From assembly GCA_964458635.1 (NCBI GenBank), contig CAYWJZ010000004.1, positions 1 to 28,534 of the forward strand: a stretch of 28,534 bases of DNA, given 5' to 3'. Position numbers and translations under genes: made by a program. The DNA comes from an uncultured Atribacterota bacterium (GTDB lineage Bacteria > Atribacterota > Phoenicimicrobiia > Phoenicimicrobiales > Stramentimicrobiaceae). Shown piece after piece: positions 11,565 through 23,661 of this stretch (positions are counted from its first letter, which is position 1; each line of letters begins with the position of its first letter). The notes under the pieces are model-generated. The model ran no database searches. It saw only the letters and a list, made by a program, of their open reading frames with translations, and was not told where the DNA came from.

Positions 11565-13382
11565 TCAGGCTAAATTCCTTCTATACTGATTACGTGAATG
11601 ATGGTCCAGGAGCTTTTTCCTTAAGCGGATGCTTTCCGGTGTTATTTCTACTAATTCATCTTCCTGGATAAATTCTAGGGCTTGTTCCAGAGAAAAATCT
11701 TTTGGTTTTTCCAAGCGCAAAGCTTCATCGGAACCGCTTGCCCGCATATTGGTGACCTGTTTTTTCTTGTTGACATTAACTTCCAGGTCATTATCTCTTT
11801 TATTTTCTCCCACAATCATCCCCTGATATACTTTTGTAGCTGGATTGATGAATAAATTACCTCTACCCTGGGCGTTATAGAGACCATAAGTGCTGGTAAC
11901 TCCACTTTCAAAAGCGATCAGTACTCCCCTGGAACGTGAGGGTATATATCCCCTGTAAGGTTGATAGTCTAGAAAAAGATGGTACATAATTCCTTTGCCT
12001 TTGGTTAAAGTAAGTAATTCACTGCGGAAACCAATCAATCCTCTAGCTGGGATTTGGAATTCAAGTCTAAGTTGATCAGAGGAAAAATCCTGCATACTTA
12101 CTAAGTCTCCTTTACGAATTCCACACATACGCATAACGGTACTCAAGTATTCTTTGGGTATGTCACAGGTCATAAGTTCTATTGGTTCATGTTTTTCGCC
12201 ATCAATATTTCGAAAGATGACTTTTGGTTTGGATACTTGAAATTCAAATCCTTCCCGGCGCATTTTTTCAATAAGGATAGAAAGATGCAATTCTCCTCTT
12301 CCGGAAACTCGGAAGGTGTTCATTGATTCTGTTTCTTCTACCCGGAGACTGACATTAGTTTCGATTTCCTTAAAAAGGCGTTCTCTCAGGTGGCGAGAGG
12401 TAACAAATTTGCCTTCCTGGCCGGCAAAAGGACTGTCATTAACCTTGAAATCAATAGTAAGAGTAGGTTTATCAATCATGATATTGGATAATGCTTCCGG
12501 TTGTTCCTGATCGGCAATTGTCTCTCCGATGTTTGCTTCACTAATTCCAGCCAATGCGATGATTTCACCAGAAAAAGCCTGTTTGGTTTCAACTCTTTCT
12601 AAACCCTCAAAGACGTAAAGTTTGACAACTTTTCCGTTGAGGTGTCTCTTATCACGTTTGATCAAAATTATATTTTCGCCTTCCTTGATTTCTCCCCGAA
12701 TAATCAGTCCCACTGCCACCTTCCCAACATAATCGTCATAGTCTAAATTGGTTATCAACATCTGTAAAGGAGCTTTGTTTTTTATAACAGGTGAAGGGAC
12801 ATATTTTACAATAGCTGAAAAGAGTATTCCCAGATTTTGATTCATAGAATCGGGAGAAAGTCCCGCTAAACCTATTCGGGCTGAGGTGTAAATTACCGGA
12901 AAATCAATTTGTTCATCATCAGCACCCAATTCAATAAATAAATCATAGATTTCATTCAGAACCTCTTTGGGTCGAGCATTAGAACGGTCTACTTTGTTGA
13001 TTACTATAATAGGAGTGATATTTAGTTCCATGGATTTACGTAAAACGAATCGTGTTTGTGGCATCGGTCCTTCAAAAGCGTCAACTATTAATAGAACTCC
13101 ATTGACCATTCTGAGAATTCTTTCAACTTCCCCCCCAAAATCTGCATGACCCGGAGTATCGACAATATTAATTTTAGTATTATTCCATATGACAGAGGCA
13201 TTTTTGGAAAAAATAGTAATCCCTCTTTCCTGTTCCATATCATTGGAATCCATAATTCTTTCCTTAATTTTCTGGTTTTCCCGGAATGTTCCACTTTGTC
13301 TTAACATAGCGTCAACCAGAGTTGTCTTACCATGATCAACATGAGCAATCAGAGCAATATTCTTTAGATTTGTATATTTCAT
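11565..13382 (-). CDS. typA: Translational GTPase TypA/BipA
   Basis: [51 protein letters not shown], and the C-terminal [13 protein letters not shown] and [14 protein letters not shown] motifs. Confidence 0.97.
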
Positions 13383-13544
13383 TATTTTTTGTACCTTTTT
13401 AACTATTTATTCTGTAATATAAAAACAGGATAAAATATTAACACAATAAGTTATAATAAGCAAAGAAAATTTCTCTACAAAATAAAATTGACCGGCAAAA
13501 AAGTGATTAACGACATTTTCAACAAAATATTTTATGATTATTTA

Positions 13545-13573
13545 TTGACATGAACTTACTTTTATGCTAAATT
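13545..13573 (+). promoter_or_regulatory. Promoter of the aro leader/operon
   Basis: TTGACA (13545-13550), a 17-nt spacer containing an extended -10 TG (13565-13566), and TAAATT (13568-13573). Confidence 0.7.
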
Positions 13574-13609
13574 TATTTTCAATAATAAACAAAAAGAGGA
13601 TTATTAAAT

Positions 13610-13699
13610 ATGTTACTAAGGAAACAGAGCCAGCAAATATTTAATTTTAACTATTATTATTTTTATTTTATTGGCGATGTTTATGCCTTAGTATCATAA
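13610..13699 (+). CDS. Phe/Tyr-rich attenuator leader peptide (29 aa)
   Basis: SD AAGAGGA (13594-13600), ATG at 13610, TAA at 13697-13699. Translation: MLLRKQSQQIFNFNYYYFYFIGDVYALVS. Eight of codons 11-20 are Phe or Tyr. Confidence 0.85.
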   Translation: MLLRKQSQQIFNFNYYYFYFIGDVYALVS

Positions 13700-13775
13700 C
13701 ATAAACAATTATAAAATAGATACCATAGGCATGAACATCAGGGAGCCTATGGTATCTTTATATGTAGCTACATGT

Positions 13776-13814
13776 AAAGGGCTATAGGTTTTTTATTACC
13801 TATAGCCCTTTTTT
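13776..13814 (+). terminator. Intrinsic terminator of the aro leader (E:F hairpin)
   Basis: AAAGGGCTATAGGT (13776-13789) pairs perfectly with ACCTATAGCCCTTT (13798-13811). A T6 tract at 13809-13814 is followed by AGTTTTT. Confidence 0.9.
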
Positions 13815-13856
13815 AGTTTTTAATTTTTTTAATCCATATAACAGGAGGTTAGGAAT

Positions 13857-14261
13857 GTGGCGATAAGAGGAATAAGAGGAGCAACGACAGTAAAGAAAAA
13901 TGATAAAAAATCTATCTTAGCAAAGACTAAAGAATTATTAATTGCCTTACAGGAAGCTAATAGTTTTGACACCAAGGATATTGCAAGCATCTTCTTTAGC
14001 ATGACCCGTGACCTAAATGCTGCTTTTCCAGCTGCGGCAGCTCGTCAACTGGGCTGGCAAAAAGTCCCTCTTTTCGGGGTTCAGGAAGCAGATATAGTAG
14101 ATACGGATGGACTGAAAAGATGTATTAGGATTCTTGTTCAGATTAATACTGAGAAATCTCAAGATGAGATAAACCATTGCTACTTGCATGAAGCAATGAA
14201 ATTAAGAAAAGATTTAACCAATAAAAAGGAGATTAAAAATGATTGTTGTAATGGATGGTAA
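13857..14261 (+). CDS. aroH: Chorismate mutase, AroH class (Bacillus type)
   Basis: IRGIRGATTV, FFSMTRDLNAAFPA.AAR, VPLF, RCIRIL, YLHEA..LR. GTG start with SD AGGAGG at 13843-13848. Confidence 0.92.
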   Translation: MAIRGIRGATTVKKNDKKSILAKTKELLIALQEANSFDTKDIASIFFSMTRDLNAAFPAAAARQLGWQKVPLFGVQEADIVDTDGLKRCIRILVQINTEKSQDEINHCYLHEAMKLRKDLTNKKEIKNDCCNGW

Positions 14262-15273
14262 GTCAAATGAGAGTCAGATTGACAAGATAACTGAGAAGTT
14301 AGAAAGTATGAAATTTGACCTGCAAATTATCAGAGGAAAGAATAAAATTGTCATTGGTATCATCGGGGATACCAGAAAATTAACCACTTTTCCCTTCCAT
14401 TCTTATCCGGGGGTCATAGATGTTCTCAGGGTCTTGAAACCATACAAACTGGCCAGCAGAGAATTCAAGGAGCTTTCTACTATTGTCAAAATTAATGATG
14501 TTTCTATTGGTGGGAAGGAACCTGTAGTTATGGCAGGTCCCTGTGCGATAGAAAGCGAAGAGCAGATCTATGAAATTGCTCGGAGAGTAAGCAGTGTGGG
14601 GGTTAAAGTACTGAGAGGAGGTGCCTTCAAACCCAGGACTTCACCTTACAGTTTCCAGGGTCTGGGCAAAAAAGGACTCAAAATAATGAGTGAAGCGGCA
14701 AAAAAATACGGACTATTGGTAATTACTGAAGTGATGTCTATTGAACAGATTGATATTATTGCACCTTATGCTGACATCTTTCAAATAGGAGCCAGAAACA
14801 TGCAAAATTTTATGTTGTTAAAAGAGATAGGGAAGACCAGAAAACCAGCAATGTTAAAGAGAGGTTTGTCCTCAACTATTGAAGAATGGCTATTATCTGC
14901 GGAGTATATTTTATCCGGAGGAAATAAAAAAGTAATCCTCTGTGAAAGAGGAATTAGAACATTTGAAAATTATACCCGGAATACCCTCGATCTAAGTGCT
15001 GTTCCTGCAATTAAAGAATTAAGTCACTTACCGATAATTGTTGATCCCAGCCATGCAACCGGAAGAAAAGAGCTGATCGGTCCCATGTCTAAAGCGGCAA
15101 TCGCTGCCGGAGCTGATGGTCTTATTATTGAAACACACCCCCATCCGGAGGCATCAATGAGTGACGGTGCGCAATCGCTGGATCTGGATCATTTTGAGAA
15201 TCTGATATCAGAAGTAGAACAAGTGGCTCATGCGGTTGGTAAGACCTTGAATCACAGTTATGCTTCTGTTTAG
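14239..15273 (+). CDS. aroF: DAHP synthase type I-beta with an N-terminal ACT-like regulatory domain, copy 1 (Ile31)
   Basis: MIVVM...GIIGD regulatory domain, AGPCAIES, GGAFKPRTSPYSFQG, QIGARNMQNF, LCERGIRTFE, DPSHATG, IETHP. Confidence 0.93.
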   Translation: MIVVMDGKSNESQIDKITEKLESMKFDLQIIRGKNKIVIGIIGDTRKLTTFPFHSYPGVIDVLRVLKPYKLASREFKELSTIVKINDVSIGGKEPVVMAGPCAIESEEQIYEIARRVSSVGVKVLRGGAFKPRTSPYSFQGLGKKGLKIMSEAAKKYGLLVITEVMSIEQIDIIAPYADIFQIGARNMQNFMLLKEIGKTRKPAMLKRGLSSTIEEWLLSAEYILSGGNKKVILCERGIRTFENYTRNTLDLSAVPAIKELSHLPIIVDPSHATGRKELIGPMSKAAIAAGADGLIIETHPHPEASMSDGAQSLDLDHFENLISEVEQVAHAVGKTLNHSYASV

Positions 15274-16371
15274 AAAGGAATATTCAGTTAAGAAAATAAT
15301 CAATAATAAGGAGATTAAAAATGATTGTTGTAATGGACGGACATTCTGATGATAAGAATTTGGATAAAATAACTGAAAAATTAAAAAGCATGGGATTCGA
15401 ATTACAGTTAAGCAAAGGAAAGAATAAAATTGTCATTGGTATCATCGGGGATACCAGAAAATTAACCACTTTTCCCTTCCATTCTTATCCGGGGGTCATA
15501 GATGTTCTCAGGGTCTTGAAACCATACAAACTGGCCAGCAGAGAATTCAAGGAGCTTTCTACTATTGTCAAAATTAATGATGTTTCTATTGGTGGGAAGG
15601 AACCTGTAGTTATGGCAGGTCCCTGTGCGATAGAAAGCGAAGAGCAGATCTATGAAATTGCTCGGAGAGTAAGCAGTGTGGGGGTTAAAGTACTGAGAGG
15701 AGGTGCCTTCAAACCCAGGACTTCACCTTACAGTTTCCAGGGTCTGGGCAAAAAAGGACTCAAAATAATGAGTGAAGCGGCAAAAAAATACGGACTATTG
15801 GTAATTACTGAAGTGATGTCTATTGAACAGATTGATATTATTGCACCTTATGCTGACATCTTTCAAATAGGAGCCAGAAACATGCAAAATTTTATGTTGT
15901 TAAAAGAGATAGGGAAGACCAGAAAACCAGCAATGTTAAAGAGAGGTTTGTCCTCAACTATTGAAGAATGGCTATTATCTGCGGAGTATATTTTATCCGG
16001 AGGAAATAAAAAAGTAATCCTCTGTGAAAGAGGAATTAGAACATTTGAAAATTATACCCGGAATACCCTCGATCTAAGTGCTGTTCCTGCAATTAAAGAA
16101 TTAAGTCACTTACCGATAATTGTTGATCCCAGCCATGCAACCGGAAGAAAAGAGCTGATCGGTCCCATGTCTAAAGCGGCAATCGCTGCCGGAGCTGATG
16201 GTCTTATTATTGAAACACACCCCCATCCGGAGGCATCAATGAGTGACGGTGCGCAATCGCTGGATCTGGATCATTTTGAGAATCTGATATCAGAAGTAGA
16301 ACAAGTGGCTCATGCGGTTGGTAAGACCTTGAATCACAGTTATGCTTCTGTTTAGAAAGGAATATTCAGTT
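14334..16371 (+). repeat. Tandem direct repeat: 14334-15289 is identical to 15416-16371 (956 nt, period 1082)
   Basis: Line-by-line comparison found no mismatch over the 956 nt. The first mismatches are at 14333/15415 and 15290/16372. Confidence 0.95.
15321..16355 (+). CDS. aroF: DAHP synthase type I-beta with an N-terminal ACT-like regulatory domain, copy 2 (Ser31)
   Basis: Identical to copy 1 from residue 33 to 344, with 12 substitutions in residues 8-32. It has its own SD (AAGGAG). Confidence 0.9.
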   Translation: MIVVMDGHSDDKNLDKITEKLKSMGFELQLSKGKNKIVIGIIGDTRKLTTFPFHSYPGVIDVLRVLKPYKLASREFKELSTIVKINDVSIGGKEPVVMAGPCAIESEEQIYEIARRVSSVGVKVLRGGAFKPRTSPYSFQGLGKKGLKIMSEAAKKYGLLVITEVMSIEQIDIIAPYADIFQIGARNMQNFMLLKEIGKTRKPAMLKRGLSSTIEEWLLSAEYILSGGNKKVILCERGIRTFENYTRNTLDLSAVPAIKELSHLPIIVDPSHATGRKELIGPMSKAAIAAGADGLIIETHPHPEASMSDGAQSLDLDHFENLISEVEQVAHAVGKTLNHSYASV

Positions 16372-22758: not shown

Positions 22759-23661
22759 ATGGATGAAAGTGTCGACGAGTATGGAAAGAAAAAAACGGTT
22801 GCTTTACAGGGAGAAATTGGTTCATTCAGTGAGATGGCTGCTCTGCAATATTTTAGTTCTTCTATTGATATAATCTCTTGTAATAGTTTTGAAGAGGTTG
22901 GTGAAAAAGTCAAATCCGGTGAAGCGGAATATGCCATTTTGCCTATAGAAAACTCCCAGACCGGAGGGATTAATCAAGTGCATGACCTATTGTTAAAGGA
23001 AAGTTTGTTTGCAATCGGAGAGGTAGTCTTAAAAATAAAACACTGTTTGATAGCACATAATGATATTAGGATAGAGCAAATTGAGAAGATTTTTTCCCAT
23101 CCACAGGCATTAGCTCAATGTGAAAGATATTTATTAAAGCATTTTCCTGATTGTCAAATCATCCCGGTATATGATACTGCCGGAAGCATAAAACAGATTA
23201 AGGAATCAAGTGACTTGAAGTCAGCAGGTATTGCCAGCAGCAGAGCTGCAAGTTATTACAAGATGAAAATTGTGGATAGCGGGATTGAAGATAACCCTAA
23301 TAATTATACAAGATTTCTGGTATTTTCCTCACAAATAAGGCACCGCCAACATAATAACAAAACATCTATTATTTTTGCCGTAGTGAGTGTCCCGGGTGCG
23401 ATATATAAGTGTCTAAAAGAATTTGCTGTTCGAGATATTAATTTAAGTCGGCTGGAATCCAGGCCAAGTAAGGTAAAGCCCTGGGAATATGTTTTTTATA
23501 TGGATTTTGAGAAAGGATTACAGGAAAAAGTTTCACAGGATGCTTTGCAGTCATTAAAAAAATACACCACTTTCATGAAAATTATTGGAACATACCAATC
23601 CCAATCAAGTGTACTTGCTTCTGCTAAAAAACATCTACAGGATATGCGTAAAGATGAGTGA
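22759..23661 (+). CDS. pheA: Prephenate dehydratase with a C-terminal ACT domain, not fused to chorismate mutase
   Basis: VALQG..GSFS, PIENS..G, SHPQALAQC, DTAGS, NYTRF, KTSIIF, INLSRLESRP, EYVFY.D. Confidence 0.94.
   Translation: MDESVDEYGKKKTVALQGEIGSFSEMAALQYFSSSIDIISCNSFEEVGEKVKSGEAEYAILPIENSQTGGINQVHDLLLKESLFAIGEVVLKIKHCLIAHNDIRIEQIEKIFSHPQALAQCERYLLKHFPDCQIIPVYDTAGSIKQIKESSDLKSAGIASSRAASYYKMKIVDSGIEDNPNNYTRFLVFSSQIRHRQHNNKTSIIFAVVSVPGAIYKCLKEFAVRDINLSRLESRPSKVKPWEYVFYMDFEKGLQEKVSQDALQSLKKYTTFMKIIGTYQSQSSVLASAKKHLQDMRKDE

Follow-up and report, generated by a model that had tools for sequence, protein, structure and literature searches.

The window (the whole stretch of DNA that was analysed, 28,534 nucleotides) carries a long plus-strand aro operon. 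The region 13540-13860, which contains a putative attenuator, lies between this operon and the divergent gene typA/bipA (11565-13382, minus strand). The first gene placed under the control of the attenuator encodes an aroH-type chorismate mutase (13857-14261, plus strand). It is followed on the same strand by two nearly identical DAHP synthase genes (copy 1, 14239-15273; copy 2, 15321-16355) and then by aroA, aroE, aroC, aroK, aroB, the type II dehydroquinase gene aroQ and tyrA; the last same-strand ORF behind tyrA occupies positions 22759-23661. The operon products, namely DAHP synthase, shikimate-pathway enzymes, chorismate mutase and prephenate dehydrogenase, lead to the synthesis of Phe and Tyr. 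DNA of the window was found mainly in hypersaline microbial-mat and lake metagenomes.

A sigma-70-like promoter was detected at 13545-13573 on the plus strand (TTGACA, 17 nt, TAAATT, with TG ahead of the -10 element; 10 of 12 matches), and a locus of the sister family f2 (L061) has a TTGACA / TGnTAATAT pair at the equivalent position. The transcript would start at about 13580. A Shine-Dalgarno sequence, GAGGA (13595-13599), is situated 10 nt 5' of the AUG of an unannotated plus-strand ORF of 29 codons (13610-13699; MLLRKQSQQIFNFNYYYFYFIGDVYALVS), the translation of which contains four Phe and five Tyr in total. Phe or Tyr accounts for eight of ten consecutive codons at 13640-13669 (TTT AAT TTT AAC TAT TAT TAT TTT TAT TTT), four of each. 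This ORF is a real, if regulatory, gene.

Segments and hairpins of the leader

Six segments, designated A to F, can be distinguished on the plus strand of the leader. Segment A (13609-13633) contains the AUG (13610-12) and pairs with B. Segment B (13671-13697) comprises the last nine sense codons of the leader and pairs with A or C. Segment C (13718-13739) pairs with D through 13718-30 and with B through 13719-23 and 13727-39, whereas segment D (13745-13765) uses 13745-57 for C and 13745-53 together with 13755-65 for E. The whole of segment E (13770-13789) pairs with D, and its part 13776-89 pairs with segment F (13798-13811), the 3' arm of an intrinsic terminator. The U-tract of the terminator (13809-13821) consists of T6 (13809-13814), AG and T5.

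The five hairpins formed by these segments were each folded alone and compared with 200 dinucleotide shuffles per hairpin. A:B (13609-13633 with 13671-13697; folded as 13606-13700) has a dG of -24.0 kcal/mol and a z-score of -4.9, the AUG being located in its stem and the regulatory Phe/Tyr codons in its loop. B:C, which is built of 13 bp with one G-U (13676-88 with 13727-39) and of 13691-95 paired with 13719-23, reaches -22.6 kcal/mol (folded as 13672-13742; z -5.9), and C:D, with 13 perfect bp (13718-30 with 13745-57), reaches -20.3 kcal/mol (folded as 13716-13759; z -5.9). D:E (13745-53 with 13781-89 and 13755-65 with 13770-80, loop AGCU; folded as 13744-13790) has a dG of -22.0 kcal/mol and a z-score of -4.9, and the E:F terminator (13776-89 with 13798-13811; folded as 13774-13813) a dG of -22.7 kcal/mol and a z-score of -5.8. 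For none of the five did any of the 200 shuffles fold as well as the native sequence. The pairings A:B, C:D, E:F, B:C and D:E proposed by the initial annotation are thus all present, at -20 to -24 kcal/mol.

The hairpins overlap in pairs, which precludes the simultaneous formation of all five. The optimum of the whole leader consists of A:B, C:D, a small apical hairpin and E:F (-72 kcal/mol, z -7.3). E:F is the sole terminator-like site within 13300-14000. The leader possesses the usual hallmarks of a leader-peptide attenuator: a Shine-Dalgarno sequence and a short ORF with a run of cognate codons ahead of a biosynthetic operon, and an intrinsic terminator between the ORF and aroH that is mutually exclusive with D:E, the latter covering E except for one base.

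Orthologous leaders and conservation of the helices

The blastn search found the leader in 33 of 41 related genomes, with 68-95% identity across 13640-13823; this tally is a lower bound, because one genome scored as negative (G022) holds a complete leader. A pattern scan of all GTDB species genomes yielded 30 stretches. Of these, 27 belong to MAGs labelled Atribacterota, Atribacteria or Caldatribacteriota, or bearing Candidatus genus names (Sediminicultor, Phoenicimicrobium, Oleincola), one to a MAG labelled just 'bacterium', and two to MAGs labelled Halanaerobiales and Promethearchaeota, which are taken to be binning errors. Within Atribacterota, the leader was detected only in the order comprising two families, referred to below as f1 and f2 (36 of 51 genomes, versus none of 34 in five other families). 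Three genomes of the group g4 that are 96-98% complete and have no leader gave no aroH match either. A crude scan of the 1.13-Mb, 75%-complete assembly for short ORFs that contain amino-acid runs and precede a terminator revealed no other credible leader-peptide attenuator.

After removal of duplicates, the orthologue set included 37 distinct full-length leaders from f1 and f2. A decayed, terminator-less copy, L024, was excluded from the counts. In this copy (L024:480-800; G008:C2) the ORF reads MDNVQYGYFYYRGDLCALVP and C:D is retained, and what looks like a fragment of prephenate dehydratase (..IYSHPQALAQC) is found downstream in place of aroH. In one f2 locus (L032:6743-7792, identical to the L023 locus) an ORF of 349 aa is situated between the attenuator and the chorismate mutase gene; it is not aro-like in appearance and possibly encodes a transposase.

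All 37 leaders retain the five hairpins. The dG values range from -18 to -31 kcal/mol for B:C, from -14 to -34 for C:D, from -13 to -22 for D:E and from -13 to -25 for E:F, and from -10 to -31 kcal/mol for A:B in the 36 leaders that could be scored, no in-frame start having been found in L019. In the 37-sequence alignment, 98.8% of the cells of C:D are paired, with two-sided changes at five pairs. The corresponding values are 98.8% and two pairs for the D:E core, 91.4% and one pair for the D:E apical stem, 99.0% and four pairs for E:F, and 89.2% and three pairs for the tail of B:C. When the partner was slid by 1-3 columns as a control, the share of paired cells dropped to 4-60% (15-60% for C:D, the D:E core, E:F and the tail of B:C), and none of 300 column shuffles matched the observed pairing or covariation. 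Covariation in orthologous leaders, pointed to beforehand as a sign of the relay, was therefore found, with two-sided changes in C:D, D:E and E:F.

Besides, concerted four-way changes across C, D, E and F were found at two positions in two independent lineages. At one of them, corresponding to the split between the families, f1 has C-G in C:D, G-C in D:E and C-G in E:F, and f2 has U-A, A-U and U-A, respectively. At the other, in L015, A-U is replaced by G-C in C:D, and the replacement is mirrored in D:E and E:F. Apart from the pairing of D with E, there is no apparent reason why the terminator stem should track that of C:D.

The sequence of B, GATGTTTATGCCTTA, is nearly invariant, third codon positions included, and for this reason the 13-bp core of B:C shows no two-sided covariation and is uninformative in this respect. 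Judging from the sequences, the invariance of the third codon positions points to a constraint on the RNA rather than on the peptide. B:C is supported instead by the C:D loop, whose nine bases on the 5' side (13731-39) are invariant or vary between A and G only opposite a U of B, by a complementary 3-bp ACC/GGT extension gained in f2, and by the ends of B, C and D (tail, head and tail, respectively), which change in concert (GUAUC/GAUAC/GUAUC, ACAUC/GAUGU/ACAUC and CCUC/GAGG/CCCUC).

Applied to the whole alignment, RNAalifold recovers just two of the five hairpins, C:D and E:F, together with a small one inside B, 11 of the 31 predicted pairs being two-sided. The hairpin inside B (13676-13695) has 6 bp, GAUGUU/AGUAUC, and differs between f1 and f2 by one-sided changes only (G-U to G-C and U-G to U-A); it was not adopted as an extra segment. 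It may merely reflect the complementarity of both B and D to C.

Balance of folds, proposed mechanism and alternatives

The optimal fold of the growing transcript is B:C when the 3' end is at 13745, A:B with C:D at 13762, B:C with D:E at 13795, and A:B with C:D and E:F at 13815. B:C and D:E, which the initial annotation assigned to a readthrough set, hence proved to be competitive in folding, as B:C is the prefix optimum at 13745 and B:C with D:E at 13795. If everything from the 5' end through a ribosome stalled in the middle of the run is blocked, the window transcript through E also folds into B:C and D:E. Once F is transcribed, both B:C with E:F (-48.9 kcal/mol) and C:D with E:F (-46.6 kcal/mol) lie below B:C with D:E (-44.6 kcal/mol). 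The terminator therefore wins at equilibrium as soon as F is made, and readthrough requires D:E to act as a kinetic trap. Such a trap is plausible, because D:E buries E except for position 13790 and F has no toehold. The barriers estimated by findpath are about 9 kcal/mol for the passage from D:E to E:F and about 25 kcal/mol for that from B:C to C:D; since the former is only about 9 kcal/mol and B:C with E:F is more stable, antitermination may be leaky. The earlier claim that the readthrough set lets transcription continue stands insofar as the set forms in transcripts through E, but the terminator is the thermodynamic winner in the presence of F.

Constrained folding was extended to the 37 leaders in silico. 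With a ribosome stalled at the middle hungry codon and the transcript reaching through E, B:C and D:E form in all 37 leaders and C:D in none. When the ribosome is placed at the stop codon, 36-37 of the 37 leaders form C:D, one forms D:E and all 37 form the terminator, in agreement with the earlier proposal that a ribosome at the stop masks B and leaves C:D and E:F to form. Without a ribosome, the terminator forms in 36 leaders. The footprint of a stalled ribosome leaves the outer arm of A uncovered, and from either of the two final hungry codons it extends over the 5' end of B. For this reason, only 16 of 37 leaders form B:C when the ribosome halts at the final hungry codon; the suggestion that a stall within 13640-69 frees B is thus borne out for the middle of the run but only in part for its end.

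If only the 31-nt footprint is blocked in the full leader, the equilibrium fold is always the terminating set, and the outer A:B stem can re-form around the ribosome. Prefix or kinetic analysis is needed for this reason, and the result was not counted against the model. It means that the model needs either a stem that would not close around the ribosome or a following ribosome that would hold A.

The stop codon (13697-99) is placed such that a terminating ribosome, reaching about 12 nt past the first A-site base, covers B and spares C, which begins 18 nt past the stop codon in the window. In two f1 leaders, L010 and L015, the ORF is four codons longer (..ALVSKSNR and ..ALVSGNKG) and 3 nt separate its stop from segment C, part of which a terminating ribosome would mask.

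The leader is likely to act ahead of the aro operon as a ribosome-mediated attenuator with six segments of the his type, responding to charged tRNA-Phe and tRNA-Tyr. The relay of six segments, which the initial annotation had preferred to the four of the trp type, holds in folding, in constrained folding and in the comparison of 37 orthologues. It seems that the position of the ribosome decides the fold, and the leader very probably switches the aro operon on under Phe/Tyr shortage. The folds, their balance, the conservation and the covariation underlying this model were all computed here; from them we infer the positions of the ribosome, the timing and the actual occurrence of termination.

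According to the model, transcription would begin near 13580, and a ribosome would load at the AUG (13610) ahead of the synthesis of B and then translate the leader. When Phe and Tyr are ample, the ribosome would reach the stop codon and mask B, leaving C free as D emerges. C:D would then form, E would be left to F, and the terminator (13776-13811) with its U-tract would halt the polymerase before aroH. When Phe or Tyr is scarce, the ribosome would stall on the Phe/Tyr codons at 13640-13660 in the A:B loop, which would block the inner part of A:B and keep B free. B would grab the emerging C (13+5 bp), leaving D free to zip with E via the pre-formed apical stem (9+11 bp). With E buried in D:E except for 13790, F would lack a toehold during the passage of the polymerase over the U-tract, and transcription would proceed into the operon. 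Finally, in the absence of translation, A, which includes the start codon (and the Shine-Dalgarno sequence in the sister family), would pair with B, so that C:D and E:F form and transcription terminates. A design of the his type would suit the aro operon, which shows no other control as far as visible.

In one metatranscriptome from a salt lake, a contig of 198 nt from a close relative spans 13638-13814 at a depth of 45 and ends in the U-tract, and contigs running on into aroH have a depth of 2-6, though contigs cannot show RNA ends or levels. The pattern of depth and U-tract end is absent from a second RNA run. It is in line with termination in the leader, but is only a hint.

In f2 genomes, a second copy of the attenuator (seen in L027, which equals L043, and in L028 and L034) is located before a stand-alone DAHP synthase gene of 340 aa. 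Its leader is Phe-rich (NYFFFYF, with six Phe and two or three Tyr), whereas the leaders of the f2 operon copies are Tyr-rich (three or four Phe and five to seven Tyr). The N-terminal sensor motif of the stand-alone DAHP synthase, NIIRGEKR, resembles QIIRGKNK of copy 1 in the window. The DAHP synthase behind the Tyr-rich operon leaders has the motif HISRGE(R/S)R, like QLSKGKNK of copy 2. This suggests that the codon mix of the leader is matched to the type of isoenzyme; in the lineage of the window, both isoenzyme genes are located behind a single mixed Phe/Tyr leader. As a tentative and rather speculative extension, the attenuator might be a tunable two-amino-acid sensor with a codon mix matched to the isoenzyme it controls, in which co-transcriptional closure of A:B also limits the time for ribosome loading. 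If A, with its start codon or Shine-Dalgarno sequence, indeed sets such timing through A:B closure, initiation of leader translation would itself be a regulated step.

Of the five helices, A:B has the weakest support, and the ribosome logic needs only B:C, C:D, D:E and E:F. The attenuator might thus be composed of five segments (B to F), with A:B serving to pause the polymerase or to throttle leader translation, or being in part a chance pairing in A/U-rich sequence. In accordance with this reading, the core of B is paired upstream with a mean probability of 0.63, versus 0.25 with the upstream part shuffled, and its upstream pairing is clearly above the leader's own shuffles in 12 of 37 orthologues and absent in L030. 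For the leader-ORF fold, the z-scores extend from +0.9 to -5.1, and the A side is non-homologous between f1 and f2. However, A:B of the window has a strongly negative z-score (-4.9), and the helix adjoining B has been retained in the form of no fewer than three distinct complementary pairs: GCCA/UGGC in most f1 leaders, CUGCU/AGCGG in L013 and GGUGG/CCACC in f2. An AAGG/CCUU contact is present in both families, even though AAGG serves as a codon in f1 but as the Shine-Dalgarno sequence in f2, and A:B hides the AUG in the window and the Shine-Dalgarno sequence with the GUG start in f2. Moreover, an untranslated transcript would default to readthrough without A. The five-segment reading is considered rather unlikely. 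The earlier statement that an untranslated leader terminates through A:B agrees with the terminator formed in 36 of 37 leaders without a ribosome, but relies on the weakest helix.

Two further explanations dispense with parts of the relay. The conservation of the RNA extends far beyond that typical of a leader peptide region, as would be expected if the switch were set by an RNA-binding protein, an uncharged tRNA or a small molecule, and the ORF were incidental. This is highly improbable, since no T-box, riboswitch or other Rfam match was obtained even at E up to 10 (the T-box covariance model has no match in the window or, at this E value, in 13400-13900), and all 37 distinct orthologues possess the ORF together with its start and Shine-Dalgarno sequence. 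With the exception of a 1-nt deletion in L019, which leads to an earlier stop, all gaps within the ORF are multiples of three across the alignment. The part of the peptide that is free at the RNA level still carries the Phe/Tyr codon run, which is retained despite varying nucleotides, with 5-13 Phe and Tyr in every in-frame orthologue, and the Phe:Tyr ratio tracks the downstream gene. The position of the stop codon, suited to a terminating ribosome that covers B and not C, argues against an incidental ORF as well. The least probable of the explanations treats C:D and E:F as constitutive, a pause or stability element and a leaky terminator which fix expression at a low level, with the B:C and D:E complementarity left over from duplication. 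C does resemble E, and D resembles F, in sequence; a tandem duplication could explain this and would make the D:E complementarity automatic. Such leftovers are difficult to reconcile with a D:E core paired in 98.8% of cells across lineages about 70% identical, with changes in the C:D helix mirrored in E:F at two positions in two lineages, with a C:D loop conserved precisely where it is complementary to B, and with hairpin energies so balanced that the best fold flips with each added segment. The six-segment, ribosome-mediated relay remains the preferred reading.

Comparison with known attenuators

No Rfam family was found in the window at the gathering score, and the models His_leader, Phe_leader, Trp_leader, Leu_leader and Thr_leader have no match in 13400-13900 even at E up to 10. 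The literature search found no paper on attenuators in Atribacterota. The type of mechanism is already known from the classical enterobacterial his operon, but the RNA family, absent from Rfam, and the phylum are new. A 2010 survey listed leader peptides as known from Proteobacteria and Actinobacteria and added Firmicutes (PMC2965389), so the present leader extends leader-peptide attenuation past the phyla named there. It represents a well-supported RNA regulatory family in a phylum known almost solely from metagenomes and allows the aro operon of these bacteria to be annotated as regulated by Phe/Tyr supply. Meanwhile, the 37 natural variants with five helices of near-equal energy make an unusually clean natural example of a his-type relay, useful for testing models of co-transcriptional folding and of the way in which an extra hairpin reduces basal readthrough (PMC1183508).

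The leader has features in common with several known systems. The trpL leader of E. coli has four segments, of which segment 1 is masked directly when the ribosome stalls at the Trp codons and segment 2 when it has reached the stop codon. As in trpL, control of the aro operon would be ribosome-mediated, and a hairpin including part of the leader ORF competes with the antiterminator, but the terminator is two exchanges further from the ribosome. The pheL and pheM leaders are described as following the trp-type pattern, with fewer segments. In E. coli pheL-pheA and pheM-pheST, genes of the Phe pathway are under terminator-antiterminator control by leader peptides in which Phe codons occur in runs (PMC11802643). 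Unlike these Phe-only leaders, the present one, which has no Rfam match, would control a whole operon with shikimate-pathway, chorismate mutase and tyrA genes. In Corynebacterium glutamicum, the leader peptide aroR, with Phe-Tyr-Phe, attenuates an operon starting with the DAHP synthase gene aroF; a response to Phe but none to Tyr was reported for it (Neshat et al. 2014, summarised in PMC11802643). Both leaders thus place a peptide with Phe and Tyr codons before an aromatic operon; aroR has just three regulatory codons, is of unrelated sequence and phylum, and is presented in that summary without a six-segment relay.

The closest parallel is the his leader of Salmonella enterica and E. coli, in which, according to the model of Johnston et al. 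(1980) as outlined in PMC4046918, A:B, C:D and E:F alternate with B:C and D:E, and termination occurs by default via A:B. The His4-His5 codons of this leader belong to the A:B stem (PMC4046918), and its extra hairpin between the first hairpin and the terminator has been argued to reduce basal readthrough after ribosome release (PMC1183508). In the leader described here, the Phe/Tyr codons are located in the A:B loop and not in A, a stalled ribosome does not mask A itself, and A extends into the initiation region, as it includes the start codon and, in f2, the Shine-Dalgarno sequence. It also differs in the mixed sensing of Phe and Tyr, in its occurrence in Atribacterota and in having no sequence or covariance-model similarity to hisL. 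It is reasonable to infer, on the basis of the sequences, that the two arose by convergent evolution, as proposed initially; the one basis for this is the lack of sequence or Rfam similarity to His_leader or Phe_leader. The parallel to the enterobacterial his attenuator, with other amino acids being sensed, is confirmed by the topology: both leaders have six segments, the same two sets of pairings, many consecutive regulatory codons and, as predicted for the present one, default termination through A:B when translation is absent.
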